Assembly (NCBI RefSeq): GCF_963921235.1 | Contig: NC_086097.1 | Location: 2,914,001-2,978,000, forward strand | DNA length: 64,000 bases | From: Mobula hypostoma | Taxonomy: Eukaryota | Direction: 5' to 3' | In this document: piece by piece, positions 14,264 through 29,712 of the stretch | How the letters are laid out: every line of letters begins with the position of its first letter | How positions within the stretch are numbered: position 1 is the stretch's first letter | The notes under the pieces: model-generated | What the model saw: only the letters and a program-made list of their open reading frames with translations | Databases searched by the model: none | Told to the model about the DNA's origin: nothing | Position numbers and translations under genes: made by a program

Positions 14264-16451
14264 GTGAGTTAATAAAGCAAATATCAACATAATAATGTAG
14301 TACAATGGTTAAAAATATCCAGGGGAGGAGATACCGGAGGCGGTGTGGGCGAGAGCTGGAGTCCATGCTGGGTTGGGGCTGCCTTCCAGAATTTGCTTGC
14401 TGGAACACGAGTTGGTTTGCGTTCATCAGCAGCTGTACTAGCACGTGATGATGACTGCTGTGTGGTGGTCCTTGCAGAAACGTGTCTCCAGGACAACATT
14501 GCATGCACCATCAATCTTCAGGCTACGATACTCAGGAAGCTGGACTATATATTTAATTGTGACTGTTTTTTGCTGTCGTGACTATATATGTGCTGACAGT
14601 GACTGTTGATGCAGTTTTGCACCTTGGCCCCTGGAAAATGTTTTGTTTGGCTGTATTAATATGTACGGGTGAATGACAATTAAACTTGAACTTGAAATGT
14701 GTTGGAGCTGCATGACATCACAGTACTTTGTAACAAAGCAATTCTGGCATTCATCATTTTATAAAGTGGAGATGACCCAAGATTAATCGAGATAACAAAT
14801 ACAAATCAGCAAAAGAGATATATCAGCACACACAAAAGGCAGGAGGGACTCAGCAGGCCAGGCAGCATCTGTGGAAACGAATAAACAGTTGATGTTTTGG
14901 GCCGAGCACCTTTATCAGAACACCTTTATTACTTCAGTTTGTGAAAAGAGATATAGCTGTCATTTGGATAAGTTTTAGACCATAAGATTTAGGAGCAGAA
15001 ATAGGCCATTTGGCCCATCGAGTCTGCTCCACCATTCAATCATGGGCTGATCCACTTCATCCAGTCATCCCCACTCCCCTGCTTTCACCCCATACCCTAT
15101 GATACCCTGGCTAATCAAGAACCTATTTACCTCTGCCTTAAATATACCCAATGACTTGGCCTCCACAGCCGCTCGTGGCAACAAATGCTACCCTCTGACT
15201 AAAGTAATTTCTCCGCATCTCTGTTCTAACAGGACGTCCTTCAATCCCGAAGTTGTGCCCTCTTGTCCTAGAAACTCCTACCATGGGAAATAACTCTGCC
15301 ATATCTAATCTGTTCAGGCCTTTTAACATTTGGAATATTTCTATGAGATCCCCCTCATTCTCCTGAACTCCAGGGAATACAGCCCAAGAGCTGCCAGACG
15401 TTCCTCATATGGTAACCCTTTCATTCCTGGAATCATTCTTGTGAGCCTTCTCTGAACCGTTTCCAATGTCAGTATGTCCTTTCTAAAATAAGGAGCCCAA
15501 AACTACACACAATAGGCCAAGTGTAGTCTCATGAGTGCCTTATAGAGCCTCAACATCACATCCCTGCTCTTATATTCTATACCTCTAGAGATGAATGCCG
15601 ACATTACATTCGCCTTCTTCACAACCGACTCAATCTGCGGGTTAACCTTTAGGATATCTTGCACAAGGACACGCAAGTCCCCTTGCATCTCTGCATTTTG
15701 AATTCTCTCCCCATCTAAATAATAGTCTGCTCGTTTACTTCTTCCACCAAAGTGCATGACCATACACTTTCCAACATCGTACTTCATTTGCCACTTCTTT
15801 GCCCATTCTCCAAAACTGTCTAAGTCTCTCTGCAGGCTCTCTGTTTCCTCAACACTACCCGCTCCTCCACATATCTTTGTATCATCGGCAAATTTAGCCG
15901 CAAATCCCTTAATACCGCTGTCCAAATCATTGACATACATTGTAAAAAGCAGTGGTCCCAACACCGACCCCTGTGGAACTCCACTGGTAACCGGCAGCCA
16001 GCCAGAATAGGATCCCTTTATTCCCACTCTCTGTTTTCTGCCAATCAGCCAATGCCACACCCATGCTAGTAACTTCCCTGTAATTCCATGGGCTCTTAAC
16101 TTGTTAAGCAGCCTCATGTGTGACACCTTGTCAAAGGCCTTTTGAAAATCCAAGTACAGCACATCTACTGCGTCTCCTTTGTCTACCCTGCTTGTAATTT
16201 CCTCAAAGAATTGCAGTAGGTTAGTCAGGCAGGATCTTCCTCTCAGGAAACCATGTTGGCTTTGGCCGATGTTGTCATGTGTCTCCAGGTACACCGTAAT
16301 CTCATCCCTAACAATCGATTCCAACAACTTCGCAACCACTGATGTCAGGCTAACAGGTCTATAGTTTCCTTTTTGCTGCCTCCCACCCTTCTTAAATAGT
16401 GGAGTAACATTTGCAATTTTCCAGTCATCCGGTACAATGCCAGAATCTATC

Positions 16452-16620
16452 TGTACTGTATAGCTACTGTATAATACTGCATGTGCTATTAGGCATGTAT
16501 TGATCTGTACGTGTATGTTCAGAGTTTGGTTTCAGTCAGTAAAGAACCCTGTTAACTTAGCTCCTGTCTCCAGCATTTTTATTTATAGGTTTGTTGTGTA
16601 ACCCGGCCACATACACAATA
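16452..16620 (+). repeat. 5' LTR
   Basis: About 90% identical by eye (~17 mismatches) to 19666-19887 apart from a ~53-bp indel. Confidence 0.9.
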
Positions 16621-16986
16621 AATTGACAACAAGGTTAATGAACCTACATCATATTGGAACGCCGTGTTTTAATTGATAACGACACCTGGAAGGAGAGCGC
16701 AAGGTATGAGCCAAGGCAGAGCGAGGCCGTGAGTCCGAAAGGAAACAGAAGCACAGCTGCAGGTCGGGAACATTGGGAGACCAAGAGAACAGTCGGAGCA
16801 GCAGCATATCCAGCCGAGACCACAGCCGGCGCTGACCCCAGGGGCTGAGGGTCTGCCTGCCCCAGAAGGGAGATAAAAAGAAGCAACACACACATCTAGA
16901 CGGAGTGCGCTCATGGCGCTAGCAAAAAGGACACATGAGTCAAAAAGAAAACAAGGGGAATATGGGGCTAAACTAACATAACAAAG

Positions 16987-17975
16987 ATGGCGTTGATTGG
17001 AACCATTACAGATTTGATAGTGGCACTGAAGACTGGGCAATTTACATTGAAAGAGTGGAGTTATATTGTGAGGATAATGGTGTTAATGATGAAAAGAAAG
17101 CCAGCGTCTTACTCAGTATTATGGGAGCAAAAACTTATGGGCTGCTTCGGAGTTAACCCCTGAAAAGCCAGCTGACAAAACGTTCAAGCAAATAGTAGAC
17201 ACTCTCCAACAGCGTTTAAACCCCAAACAACTGGCCATTGCTGAAAGATTTAAATTTCACAAACGGAATCAGAGCAAAAACGGAAGCATTTCTGAATATT
17301 GTGCTGAATTGAGCAAATTATCAGAACATTGTCAATTTGGAGCTGGTCTATCGCACGCATTGAGGGACAGGTTAGTGTGTGGCATGCACTGTGAAGCCAC
17401 ACAGAAGAAGCTCCTGGGTGAAAAAGACCTTACATTAGAGAAGACGCTGAACATTGCAATATCAATGGAAACAGCAGCATGGGGTGCTTCAGAGATACAA
17501 CAAAAATCTCTGGAATATGCTACAAATAAAATGTCACTGAGCAGAAACAAAGGAAGGAAATGTTACTGTTGTGGGAATGTGTCACATGACCCTGAGGACT
17601 GTTGGTTTAAAGACAAAGAATGCAGAAACTGTGGCAAACAGGGCCACACTGGCAGAGTATGCAAAGCTAGTAAACAGCAGAAAAAGGACAAAATACAGAG
17701 AAACAAGAAACCCCAGAAAGGAAAACACAACAATGAAAGAAGGCTAAAACGAACTAAACTACTGCTAAAGCCTTACACAGGACAGAAAGTGCATCCCAAA
17801 GGTAAAATTAAAGTGACAGTGACCCACGGAGGTAAAACACAGCAACTGACCCTCTATGTACTGAAAAAGGGAGGACCACCATTACTGGGACGTGAATGGA
17901 TCAGGAAAATCCAGTTGGATTGGCACACCATCAAGACACTAGATGTGTTAACAAAGGAGGGCAGCTTGGCGGAGA
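16987..17975 (+). pseudogene. Gypsy gag plus partial aspartic protease (frameshifted 5' part)
   Basis: ATG 16987 MALIGTI.., [37 protein letters not shown] knuckles [14 protein letters not shown] and [14 protein letters not shown], protease C-half PLLGREW lacking the DTG site. Confidence 0.88.
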
Positions 17976-17977
17976 AG

Positions 17978-18647
17978 ATGTCCGCAGCTCTCCTCTCACC
18001 CATTGTCGACTATTACAACAACGAGGAGTTAGACAGCGTCGATGATGAGGACGAACGCAGTATCCGTGGCTGCGACTCGGATGAAGATACAGAGGATGCA
18101 AGGGAGACAAATACTGCCAATAAGCAGGATGATGAAGACTACCTGGAAGTAAAAGAGCAGATGTACCAGGAAAAATTGACATCTCCCAAAAGACAGCTAC
18201 AGCAGATACAGGAAGGCACTTTGCAGGAGTATCAGAAAAGGATGAAGAAACTAGGTCAACAATACAAGGAAAGAATACGAAATGCAGAGCTTTTTCTGCA
18301 ACTGGAGCCAGAATAACTTGAAAGGAATTATATTAAAGAGAAAAAAGCAGCAGTGAAGGAATTTGAAGATAAAAAGATTGAGTTAGAAGGGAAAAAAGAG
18401 GATTGAGTATGAGAGGCTAACAATGGAACTCACAGGAGATTCTATGGAGGTAAAGCCAATAATGACTAAGAAACTAAGGAGGAGACCTAATGACCCTGTT
18501 CCAATTACAGACAAAAGACAAAAACCTGCACCTGCGCAGTTAAATTACTTGTTGACAGATGAACAGATAGTGGAAGACCTGTGAACTCTCAATAACCTTA
18601 AATCTCCGAAAAGACCTGCATCTCCATCTTCTCCTGAACAATTTCCT
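17978..18647 (+). pseudogene. SUDS3: Processed SUDS3 (Sin3/HDAC complex subunit SDS3) retrocopy fragment, in frame with gag
   Basis: [58 protein letters not shown], then after TAA 18314-18316 ERNYIKEKKAAVKEFEDKK, and after a deletion/frameshift [57 protein letters not shown]; no introns; C-terminal part missing. Confidence 0.92.
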
Positions 18648-19440
18648 TGGGAAAGATCCATGAAAATTGGTCATCCCTTAAAAGCTCTCGGACAAAATCA
18701 ATTCCATTCAAACAGAACAGTTTTCGCACAAGGTAAATCTTGAACCAATCATTTCCTCCATTGAGAATCATTCACTTAATCCTTTGCACTGAAGTTTCTT
18801 TTGCACGTACATATTTTGAATCCTCAGTCAATGTGTCTTGTTTTGCACAAAGAAGTTGGGAATCAGCATCAAAACAGAGGTGAATTCTGGCAACAAACTG
18901 TGAGGTTTCTATTGTTGTATTTTCACACTTGTGCTGAGTGTGCGTCTGAAGGAATTCCCCGTCTTGAGTCAGGTCCGCACTCTCTTCTTGCACTGTGCAC
19001 AACTGGGAGTTTTCATACATAGAATCCTCCAGACAATTCAGAAACAGTGCATAGAGTTCAGTCTCATTTCCTTGACCAAGATTTGTTTTTTGAACTTTAG
19101 ACAGATAGCACTGCAGGTAATCCTTAATATCAGCAAAACTGTACTTTAACAGCAGCTTAAGAACAATGGAATGAGCAACAGGATTTTGATCAACTGCTTC
19201 TTCAAGTAATGAATGATTACTGGTAAAGTGCTGATCTTTCTGTGAGTCATTGGATTACCCGGACTTTTGAATAACTAGCAGAGACAGCAGATCACCAACC
19301 ACTTCTTTTGGAAACCAAAGCTACGGAAAATGCATCACACCTCTTGCGAAATATAACTAATTTTGCTACAGCTTCACTTATTTCTTCTGTTACTGCTGGT
19401 ACATAATCATCATCTAGAGAAATATGACACAGTGGGCAGA
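18631..19440 (-). pseudogene. RNF213: Processed RNF213 (mysterin) fragment, end of RING through following E3 region, antisense to the element
   Basis: Minus strand reads CPLCHISLDDDYVPAVTEEISEAV..FRKRCDAF..KEVVGDLLSLL..SIVLKLLLKYSFADIKDYLQ..TELYALFLNCLEDS..VARIHLCFD..NDWFKIYLVRKL..WIFPKEIV, matching RNF213 (human VILKLLLKYSFHDVKDYIQ, TELYMLFINCLEDS, NDWHRVYLVRKL, WVFPKDVV); two stops and one deletion. Confidence 0.88.
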
Positions 19441-19665
19441 GTCCCCCCCAGAGACTTGAGTTATAAATGGGTCTTAGACCAAAAGTGGAAAAAAAAGGCT
19501 TGTTATAATTTGATATTATTACGTTACTTTGTTATAATTTGATATTGTTAAGTTACTAAGTAAACAATTTGTAGGCATTTGTATGTTAAGGGTAAACATA
19601 CTTGTTTAGCGTAGTGCCCCAGTAAAAAAAAAGGTTGATACACTATTAAAATAAAAGGGGAGGAG

Positions 19666-19887
19666 TGTACTGTTCAGCTACTATATAATATGGGACTACT
19701 TTATGTTGTAGGGACATGTTGCATGCGCTATTATGCATGTACTGAGCATGCGCTATTAGGTGCGTATTGATCTGTAGGAGTGTGTTCAGAGTTCGGTTTC
19801 AGTCAGTAAAGAGCCCTGTTAACCTAGCTCCCGTCTCCAGCGTTTTTATTTATAGCTTTGTTGTGTAACCCGGCCACATACACAACA
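19666..19887 (+). repeat. 3' LTR (followed by PBS-like motif and a duplicated LTR tip to 19915)
   Basis: Follows the PPT; TGTACTG...CACAACA. Confidence 0.9.
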
Positions 19888-21110
19888 AATTGGTGACAAG
19901 GTCACATACACAACACTATCGATTCGTGAAAGATCACCGTTGACGCCTCCGCAATCTCTTCAGCTACTTCCTTCAGAACCCGAGGGTAAATTCCATCAGG
20001 TCCAGCAGATTTATCCAACCTCAGACCATTAAGCTTCCTGAGCAGCTTCTCAGTCGTAATTTTCACTGCACAAACCTCACTCCCCTGACACTCTTGAATG
20101 TCCGGTATACTGCAGACGTCTTTCACTGTGAAGACTGATGCAAAATACGCATTCAGTTCCACTGCCATCTCTGTACCTTTCGTTACAATATCTCCAGCGT
20201 CATTTAGTATTGGTCCTATATCTACCCTCGACTCTCTTTTACCCTTTATATATCTAAAAAAGCTTTTAGTATCTTCTTTAATATTAGTCGCCAGCTTCCT
20301 CTCATAATTCATCTTTTCCTTCCGAATATCCTTCTTAGTTTCCTTCTGCAAGTTTTTAGAAGCTCCCCAATCCTCTATCTTCCCATTCCCTCAGGGGTGG
20401 AAATTTTTGAAACATTTATGGAAATGTTTCCGACTACCACATAGTTCCTATGGGAGGACCACAATCTTGCCGTAGGGGTCGGAGGTTTGTATGCCTGAAT
20501 GACCCATTGAGCTCTGTTGGCTGGAGTTGGGGCTTTATGCTTTGGTTCTTGGTCGGGTCACCCATGCCGAACAGATCAAAGGTAAAGGCCAGACTAAGAA
20601 TGGTCCTCTTTGTTTGGGAGTTCTGCTCAGGGCAAACAACCGTGATTGGTCAAAAAAGTTGTCATGGAAACAGCAATGAAAAATCCTTATATATCTGTGT
20701 GCGATCAAGGACAGACAGAGATGGAGGACCTTCATTGCTGCCCTAAACACCAGTGAGAAAGCCACATAGTTACTCTTAGGGGAAAAATAATTTATTGGCT
20801 GTAAAGAAAATGAAATTCTGATCAATCAACCCTTTGTCAGTGAGGTACTCAAGTAAATGTACTTTTCAATTGAGATGAATGGCTTCAACACTGTGAACTC
20901 ACCCATGAGAAAGGGTCTTGGCCTGAAACATTGACTGCTTATTCATTTCCATAGATGCTGCCTGATCTTCTAAGTTCCCGCAGTGTTTTGTGTGTGCTGC
21001 TCTGGATTTTCAATATCTGCAGAATCTCTTGTCATTGTCAACCCACCCTCTCTGTTTTTGGATATTGAAAGTTAGTTGCTTTTACTTGAACCTCTGTTGT
21101 TCTTTCTCAG

Positions 21111-27696: not shown

Positions 27697-29712
27697 CGTA
27701 AGACCATAAGATATAGTAGCAGAAGTAAGCCATTTAGCCCATCGAGTCTGCTATGCCATTCAATCATGGACTGGTCCAATTCTTCTAGTCATCCCCACTC
27801 CCCTGCTCTCACCCCATATCCTTTGATGCCCTGGCTAATCAAGAACCTATCTATCTCTGCCTTAAATACACCCAATGACCTGGCCTCCACAGCTGCTCAT
27901 GGCAACAAATTCCACAGATTTACCACCCCCTGACTAAAGTAATTTCTCTACATCGCAAATCTAAAAGGACGTTCTTCAATCCTGAAGTCATGCCCTATTG
28001 TCCTAGAGACATCTAACATGGGAAATAACTTTGCTATATCTCATCTGTTCAGGCCTTTTAACATTTGGAATGTTTCTATGAGATTCCCACTCATTCTCCT
28101 GAACTCCAGGGAATATAGCCCAAGAGCTGCCAGATGTTCCTCATAGGGTAACCCTTTCATTCCTGGAATCATTCTTGTGAATCTTCTCTGAACCCTCTCC
28201 AATGTCAGTATATCCTTTCTAAAATAAGGAGCCCAAAGCTGCACACAACACTCCAAGTGTGGTCTCACGAGTGCCTTATAGAGCCTCAACATCACATCCC
28301 TGCTGTTATATTCTATACCTCTAGAAATTAATGCCAACATTGCATTTGCCTTCAACTGACTCAACCTGGAGGTTAACCTTTAAGGTATCTTGCACAAGGA
28401 CTCCCAAGTCCCTTTCCATCTTTGCATTTTGAATTCTCTCCCCATCTAAATAATAGTCTGCCCGTTTATTTCTTCCACCTAAGTGCATGACCATACACTT
28501 TCCAACATTGTATTTGCCACTTTTTTGTCCATTCCCCTAAACTATCTAAGTCTCTCTGCAGGCTCTCTGTTTCCTCAACACTACCCGCTCCTCCACCTAT
28601 CTTTGTATCATCGGCAAATTTAGCCACAAATCCATTAATACCAGACTCCAAATCATTGACATACATTGTAAAAAGCAGCGGTCCAGTATCGACCCTTGTG
28701 GAACTCCACTGGTAACTGGCAGCCAGCCAGAATAGGATCCCTTTATTCCCACTTTCTGTTTTTTTGGCAATCAACCAATGCTCCACCCACGCTAGTAACT
28801 TCCCTGGAATTCCATGGGCTCTTATCTTGCTAAGCAGCTTAAGAATTGCAGTAGGTTTGTCAGGCAGGATTTTCCTTCCAGGAAACCATGCTGGCTTTGG
28901 CCTATCTTGTCATGTGCCTCCAGGTACTCTGTAATCTCTGCCCTAACAATCGATTCCAACAACTTCCCAATCACTGATGTCGGGCTAACAGGTCTATAGT
29001 TTCCTTTCTGCTGCCTTCCACACTTCTTAAATAGCGGGGTAACATTTGCAATTTTCCAGTCATCTGGTACAATGCCAGAATCTATCGATTCTTGAAAGAT
29101 CATCCGCAATCTCTCCAGCTGCTTCCTTCAGAACCCGAGGGTGAATCCCATCACGTCCAGGAGATTCATCCACCCTCAGACCATTAAGCTTCCTGAGCAC
29201 TTTTTCGGTCGTAATTTTCACTGCACGAACTTCACTTCCCCGACACTCCTGAATGTCTGGTATACTGCAGACGTCTTCCACTGTGAAGACTGATGTAATA
29301 TATTTATTCAGTTCCTCTGCCATCTGTGCATCTCTCATTACAATATCTCCAGTGTCATTTTATATTGGTCCTATATCTACCCTCAACTCTCTTTTACCCT
29401 TTATGTACTTAAAAGAGCTTTTAATATCTTCTTTGATATTAGCCGCCAGCTTCTTCTCGTAATTCATCTTTTCCTTCTGAATGGACTCCTTCGTTTTAAA
29501 AGCTCCCCGATCCTCTATCTTCCCATTAGCTCTGGCTTCTTTGTATGCCCTCTCTTTTGCTTTTACTTTGGCTCTGACTTCACTTGTCAGCCACGGTAGT
29601 GACCTTCTCCCCTTTGCAAATTTCTTCTTATTTGGAATGTATCTGTCTTGCACTTCCCTCATTTTCACAGAAACTCCAGCCATTGCTGCTCTGCTGTCCT
29701 TTCTCCAAACCC
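27697..29712 (-). mobile_element. CR1 LINE, 5'-truncated, same family as 14975-20385
   Basis: KFADDTK, GNYRPVSPTSVIGKLLE, internal deletions; shows the empty Gypsy target gaatctatcgattc near 29078-29091. Confidence 0.88.

Follow-up and report, generated by a model that had tools for sequence, protein, structure and literature searches.

How does a long terminal repeat (LTR) retrotransposon come to carry parts of two host genes in place of its reverse transcriptase (RT), RNase H, and integrase (IN), and is such a copy a single accident or one of many? The question is raised by an LTR element at positions 16452 to 19915 of a 64,000-nucleotide stretch of the Mobula hypostoma genome (contig NC_086097.1, positions 2,914,001 to 2,978,000; here called the window). 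Its LTRs both begin with TG and end with CA, and between them lie sequences of SUDS3 and RNF213. We consider it very probable that this is a decayed copy of a nonautonomous Ty3/gypsy family that captured SUDS3 first and antisense RNF213 later, then underwent deletions, and was moved in trans.

The window copy is a complete integration. As a sequence-only reading of this stretch had claimed, two LTRs, a polypurine tract (PPT), a 5-bp target-site duplication (CTATC), and the corresponding empty site can all be found in the window (Table 1), and the element does lie within a long interspersed nuclear element (LINE), whose interrupted open reading frame (ORF) encodes an RT. Two copies of this LINE family lie on one strand 12.6 kb apart (15503-16446 with 19921-20390, and 28700-29500), and the second provides the empty site. 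The outer bounds of the element stand as first read, but the end of the 5′ LTR had to be moved to 16620; the LTR end position was fixed by comparing the window copy with 15 other copies. Across an LTR core of 157 nt, the 5′ and 3′ LTRs of the window copy are 89% identical.

Inside the element, gag carries two CCHC knuckles (starting at 17561), and only the C-terminal half of the protease is left. The sequence-only reading had recognized this half, but the loss is specific to this copy: a 218-bp deletion at about 17735-17744 took out the active site, and other family copies are 218 bp longer there and retain the active site LDTGSA (in one of them, L033, the protease matches PF13975 below Pfam's cut-off). 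Homology to autonomous copies stops at 17965, and the following 1,478 bp (17966-19443) are host cargo. The SUDS3 part matches an SDS3 chain in the PDB (4zqa; E value, 3.7e-11) and contains stops and frameshifts. The RNF213 part matches residues 3534-3682 of PDB entry 6tax on the minus strand (E value, 2e-23), is 61% identical to protein P0121, and carries a 32-bp deletion; the earlier reading missed that RNF213 is antisense. The two cargo segments overlap by 8 nt of microhomology (18630-18637). Downstream, the pol tail (19449-19466) encodes QRLEL and a stop and is homologous to the C terminus of the gypsy polyprotein P0002. No RT or IN was found between the cargo junctions in the aligned family copies. 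Judged by its sequence, the element is a nonautonomous Ty3/gypsy derivative that kept gag-protease and had RT-RNase H-IN replaced by spliced host sequence, and the copy in the window, now decayed, belongs to a minority subfamily.

Searched by sequence, the 3.48-Gb assembly from which the window comes yielded about 35 loci of like layout (82 to 92% identity). To count copies, we matched 36-mers with up to three mismatches; the counts are lower bounds, and reversed-pattern controls gave 0 each time. The protease/SUDS3 junction had at least 263 matches and the SUDS3/RNF213 junction at least 54, and there were at least 100 matches to a central RNF213 36-mer, at least 262 to a SUDS3 36-mer missing from the window's form, and at least 27, including the parent gene, to an RNF213 36-mer on the RING side. 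A 40-mer from the protease end (473 matches) is also present in autonomous copies and was therefore not used to count junctions. Some copies will have been missed by the junction count because of deletions like the 58-bp one that spans the SUDS3/RNF213 junction in copy L063. Where copies were aligned, the protease/SUDS3 junction was identical in 21 of 21 and the SUDS3/RNF213 junction in all 13 copies of the window's form. Fifteen other copies with both ends had 5-bp target duplications that were exact (7 copies), matched at four of five positions (6 copies), or were unclear (2 copies), and these duplications differed from one another. Because the junctions recur at many places with differing target duplications, the chimera is an amplified mobile unit; both the suggestion that it had itself moved and the suggestion that it belonged to an amplified nonautonomous family were borne out. 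An assembly artefact joining unrelated sequences has next to no probability, given identical junctions at 54 and 263 dispersed places and a contig from an independent sequencing run, of another organism, that bridges the SUDS3/RNF213 junction; this settles the misassembly concern raised earlier.

The likely source of the missing enzymes is also present in the genome. In L033, gag-protease shares 58 to 63% identity with gypsy polyproteins that are about 1,311 amino acids long and have RT, RNase H, and IN domains (the domain order is that of the P0002 sequence alone, in which PF00078, PF17917/17919, and PF00665 are present), and many loci in this genome match the RT-IN portion of one of these polyproteins. 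All 12 RT-IN loci that were fetched (L051-L062) match the family gag-protease at 82 to 92% nucleotide identity, and 11 of the 12 also match its pol tail, PPT, and LTR, in line with the autonomous partner that the sequence-only reading had expected.

The family occurs in three structural forms, A, B, and C, with B′ as a variant of B (Table 1). In the simplest, form A, homology to the autonomous copies ends at ...GGAGGGCAGC and restarts in an imperfectly similar stretch finishing in GACAGA, which delimits a cargo of about 1,050 bp. In this form, SUDS3 is in the same frame as gag and protease, and ORFs that cross from gag-protease into SUDS3 reach 461 amino acids (L033) and 427 amino acids (L050). 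The RING finger in the cargo of form C is recognized by Pfam (zf-C3HC4; E value, 1.5e-11), and the flanking SUDS3 duplication is CATCTCCGTCTTCTCCTGA. At eight places cross-checked by coordinates, the RING-side RNF213 36-mer and the SUDS3 36-mer that is lost in the window's form stand exactly 59 bp apart. One of the two form C sequences, L063 (G000:C1:10654450-10655500), has an insert of about 125 bp within the RNF213 cargo (L063 positions ~255-379 in element orientation) in addition to its 58-bp deletion. The deletion series of B and B′ both terminate in the C-run ahead of AGAGACTTGAG, which may be a switching hotspot. This run (window 19444-19450; L031-L045) has about 5 to 17 C residues, depending on the copy.

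Table 1. Features of the window element and its surroundings (window coordinates) and structural forms of the family (copies)
Feature	Position or copies	Strand	Details
5′ target-site duplication CTATC	16447-16451	.	Identical 5 nt at 3′ side
5′ LTR	16452-16620	+	Direct repeat with 19746-19902; shorter than 3′ LTR
PBS-like (primer-binding-site-like) motif	16621-16644	+	Adjoins 5′ LTR; degraded in window copy, better kept in other copies
gag and protease remnant	16987-17965	+	Pfam PF03732 (Retrotrans_gag); CCHC matches in PDB
SUDS3 cargo	17966-18637	+	12 nt of 5′ untranslated region (UTR), ATG at 17978, first ~220 codons; spliced
RNF213 cargo	18630-19443	-	Antisense to element; spliced
C-run and last pol codons (QRLEL, stop)	19444-19466	+	Aligns with end of autonomous copies
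Internal 3′ untranslated region of element	19467-19652	+	Common to family and 11/12 autonomous loci
Polypurine tract AAAAGGGGAGGAG	19653-19665	+	Directly 5′ of 3′ LTR in window copy and other copies
3′ LTR	19666-19915	+	End (19874-19915) repeats LTR terminus past 15-nt PBS-like insert
3′ target-site duplication CTATC	19916-19920	.	Identical 5 nt at 5′ side
Host LINE RT ORF, split by element	15503-16446, resumes 19921-20390	-	Pfam RVT_1, E value 1.7e-31
Uninterrupted (empty) site in paralogous LINE copy	about 29078-29091	.	Single CTATC; flanks joined without gap
Form A	L043-L050		12 nt SUDS3 5′ UTR, complete coding sequence to ...RRRSAA-stop, ~110 nt 3′ UTR; no A-run
Form C	L063 and L064		Form A with ~1.15 kb antisense RNF213 including RING finger inside SUDS3; 19-nt SUDS3 repeat on both sides
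Form B	Window, L031-L042		Lacks RING part, SUDS3 C terminus, 3′ UTR, and part of pol tail
Form B′	L039, L042 (2 of 12 fetched form B copies)		~155 bp extra RNF213; different right junction

The PPT was found in every copy seen, and the PBS-like motif is present in family copies. LTR starts differ among family copies, and in the window about 80 bp near the start of the 3′ LTR (19666-19745) are absent from the 5′ LTR (16452-16500). At the other end of the 3′ LTR (19874-19915), the terminal 13 to 14 nt are followed by a 15-nt PBS-like stretch and then by the terminal 13 nt once more. This arrangement was seen in none of the 15 other copies and looks like the product of a slipped strand transfer.

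Both parent genes were found, and both have introns, as an intronless cargo had implied. Exon 1 of the parent SUDS3 gene on C78 reads ...GGGCAGCTCGGCGGGGAAG ATG ... GATGAAG|GTAACT, and the family copies run straight into exon 2 at the GT that starts the parent's intron. On C68, the ends of the cargo are 23 kb apart in the RNF213-like parent (cargo landmarks at 48810701, 48832776, and 48833726; later exons at 48834567-48847063), compared to about 1.15 kb in the cargo itself. Because SUDS3 intron 1 is absent and 23 kb of the RNF213 gene correspond to 1.15 kb, the cargo is intronless. A search with the whole protein P0121 returned only cargo copies, and a part of P0121 outside the cargo found the RNF213 parent; the insert derives from within the mRNA (P0121 residues ~392-791 of 1672). 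Weaker matches to the RNF213-like protein (42 to 57% identity) at C68:41296520-41303875 and C2:218463653-218463823 (G000) suggest RNF213 paralogues, with the parent of the cargo at the C68:488 locus. A further locus, G000:C91:58806825-58806859, shares 21 nt of the SUDS3 5′ UTR and the start codon and differs beyond the ATG; a paralogue and an old copy are both conceivable. Contigs from sequencing runs that appear to be RNA (their RNA nature is a guess, and parts that they do not cover are uninformative on expression) contain spliced RNF213 message collinear with window positions 18630-19443 and extending into the next exon; a 990-nt contig is among those collinear with the cargo. In the same contigs, the parent SUDS3 message includes 24 nt (encoding KENLIAEL) that the family SUDS3 lacks.

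The junctions carry short homologies. At its 5′ end, SUDS3 joins the element at GGGCAGC, 7 nt common to the parent 5′ UTR and the autonomous element. The left RNF213 junction, exactly where an RNF213 exon ends, has CTCCTGA in common with SUDS3 (7 nt compared with the gene and 8 nt compared with the spliced mRNA), and the right junction of form C shares CAG, preceded by an imperfect match to AAAAAG. Thus, of the three junctions compared with a parent gene, two have a perfect overlap of 7 to 8 nt and one an imperfect overlap; at a random junction, a perfect 7-nt overlap would be expected well under once per thousand. These microhomologies agree with the earlier suggestion of capture by template switching. 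The aligned family copies have no poly(A) tail at any cargo border and no flanking duplication around SUDS3. Cargo segments with poly(A) tails or duplications of their own had been named as grounds for doubt, and a 19-nt duplication does flank RNF213. The SUDS3 cargo ends about 110 nt past the stop codon without an A-run and inside LTRs, which is not the form of a LINE-made processed pseudogene. In L043-L045, an ATTAAA precedes the SUDS3 3′ UTR/pol junction by about 16 nt, and a proximal poly(A) site may have set the end of the captured message.

From these junctions, form A would have arisen when the RT of an autonomous element switched onto spliced SUDS3 mRNA and back during reverse transcription. 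In place of RT-RNase H-IN, the element would thereby have received the entire SUDS3 coding sequence, in frame with gag-protease, together with 12 nt of 5′ UTR and about 110 nt of 3′ UTR. The junctions are seen directly, and the template switching that we infer from them accords with the two-switch model of LTR-mediated retroposition. Form C would have followed when some 1.15 kb of spliced RNF213 mRNA, RING finger included, was inserted in antisense within the SUDS3 cargo and came to lie between the two copies of a 19-nt SUDS3 duplication. The sequence-only reading had pol exchanged for two host mRNAs; the spliced cargo stands, but RNF213 entered an element that already carried SUDS3 and not the site of pol. 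Since antisense RNF213 does not fit minus-strand switching, we propose a route through plus-strand DNA, in which the growing plus-strand end most likely annealed to the sense mRNA at TCTCCTGA, was extended along it, and landed back on the minus-strand DNA 19 nt upstream. The antisense capture with its 19-nt duplication is a rare natural trace fitting template switching in plus-strand synthesis. Deletions terminating in the C-run of the pol tail would have produced forms B′ and B, the window copy being form B. All forms would then have been packaged, reverse transcribed, and integrated in trans with the RT, RNase H, and IN of autonomous relatives, giving hundreds of copies that later decayed neutrally.

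Several points weigh against this history. The minus-strand model yields sense cargo, and a plus-strand switch, an antisense RNA, and an event at the DNA level are indistinguishable here. The 19-nt flanking duplication fits a staggered-break insertion too. The stop-codon 36-mer of SUDS3 has 192 matches, none of them listed near the parent, and the 3′ junction is judged from the element side only. Nearly all RT-IN matches contain stops, and the helper role of these loci is read from sequence. Finally, forms A and B and autonomous copies are intermixed in a star-like gag-protease tree, so that the order A, C, B rests on structure and not on phylogeny; ordering the subfamilies by the tree was dropped for this reason.

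In a rival account, an RNF213 cDNA fragment was put into one genomic form A copy at a staggered break, by LINE machinery or by cDNA-capturing break repair, and that copy became the source of C and B. Such an insertion would account for the direct 19-nt SUDS3 duplication on both sides of RNF213, its antisense orientation would need no special pleading, and LINEs are plentiful around the element. However, neither RNF213 border has a poly(A) or LINE tail, the insert comes from inside the mRNA and not from its 3′ end, and both borders show microhomology like that of the SUDS3 borders, which certainly arose in the cycle of an LTR element. We therefore regard an insertion at the DNA level as unlikely, if well short of implausible, and prefer capture during reverse transcription for RNF213 as well as for SUDS3.

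All sampled copies are old. The Kimura two-parameter distance between LTRs ranged from 0.067 to 0.157 in 16 copies (median, 0.094; window copy, 0.120), terminal branches of the gag-protease tree were about 0.05, and differences between copies were mostly CpG decay. The tree, from which 3 of the 12 autonomous loci (L052, L056, and L057) were excluded for poor gag-protease coverage or an insertion, has a shape consistent with a single old burst, in which co-packaged RNAs may have recombined. Pairwise ratios of nonsynonymous to synonymous substitution (dN/dS; Nei-Gojobori) were 0.54 for SUDS3 compared to 0.49 and 0.84 in shifted frames (21 copies), 0.63 for RNF213 compared to 0.67 and 0.56 (13 copies), and 0.52 for gag-protease compared to 0.64 and 0.65. 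By this measure, neither the SUDS3 nor the RNF213 cargo shows a frame-specific signal of selection, and gag-protease shows a weak one.

These ratios bear on whether the SUDS3 copies might instead be an expanded set of functional SDS3-like host genes beside retrotransposon remnants. Public SDS3-like gene models exist, some with full 311-amino-acid ORFs (P0128 and P0131), and contigs of apparent RNA runs bridge the protease/SUDS3 junction. But every copy examined lies inside the same LTRs with the same junctions, most contain stops, the dN/dS of the SUDS3 frame is not below that of the wrong frames, and a few open frames would be expected by chance among about 300 copies; we find a host-gene expansion very hard to credit. 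The SDS3-like models of M. hypostoma and Mobula birostris (P0128, P0129, P0131, P0142, and P0144) have the 8-residue gap of the family, and they are probably retrotransposon cargo annotated as genes. Two of them (P0129 and P0144) have unrelated N-terminal extensions in addition. A bolder idea is that the cargo is active, with a Gag-protease-SDS3 fusion that links the Sin3-HDAC machinery to the element's particles or RNA, or blunts that machinery, and with RNA from the antisense RNF213 of forms B and C pairing with the mRNA of RNF213, an interferon-induced restriction factor. We think this most improbable; if true, the family would carry host-derived counter-defence modules, which would help to explain its hundreds of copies.

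The family also affects how retrocopies are counted. In the available part of a 2026 preprint, SUDS3 ranks with MIPOL1, SDF2L1, SLU7, and ZNF276 as a leading parent of retrocopies in cartilaginous fishes, and LINE activity and selection are the terms in which such rankings are discussed. For the genome studied here, if not beyond it, the surplus of SUDS3 copies is retrotransposon cargo, an explanation absent from that part of the preprint, and retrocopy censuses should screen for LTR-borne amplification.

Our literature searches found no paper describing this ray family, and several known systems invite comparison. Acutely transforming retroviruses are replication-defective, depend on a helper, and carry cargo derived from host mRNA and fused in frame to gag. 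The ray element is likewise pol-defective with cargo in frame with gag (the L033 and L050 ORFs), but it has no env and shows no sign of infectivity or cargo function, and it is a germline-amplified family rather than a somatic pathogen. The maize LTR element Bs1 has a low copy number. As in the ray family, segments of several unlinked host genes were acquired by Bs1 in successive events and form a hybrid ORF, but Bs1 is a plant element with, in the available text of a review (PMC13317346), partial gene segments only. MaLR elements moved by MERVL, as far as the available text of Tan et al. describes them (2016, Genome Res, PMC5131818), have LTRs and cis signals in common with an autonomous partner and lack pol, as here; unlike the ray family, MaLR-type elements carry no host gene. 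The same text describes LTR-mediated retroposition in flies, in which intronless host mRNA without poly(A) replaces the internal ORF between LTRs, a chimera can hold several genes, the resulting pseudo-LTR element can move anew, and junctions show microsimilarity (median, 6 bp, compared to 7 to 8 nt here). Only 2 of 15 fly retrocopies in that account had more than one insertion site. The ray family, in contrast, has hundreds of copies in a vertebrate, a whole in-frame coding sequence, an antisense second capture with a 19-nt duplication, and deletion subfamilies. An animal LTR element can here be seen, junction by junction and with both parents at hand, acquiring host messages stepwise before a several hundred-fold amplification. 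LTR-mediated retroposition is itself an established process; what is unusual in the ray family is the copy number, the in-frame fusion of a whole gene, and the antisense second capture.

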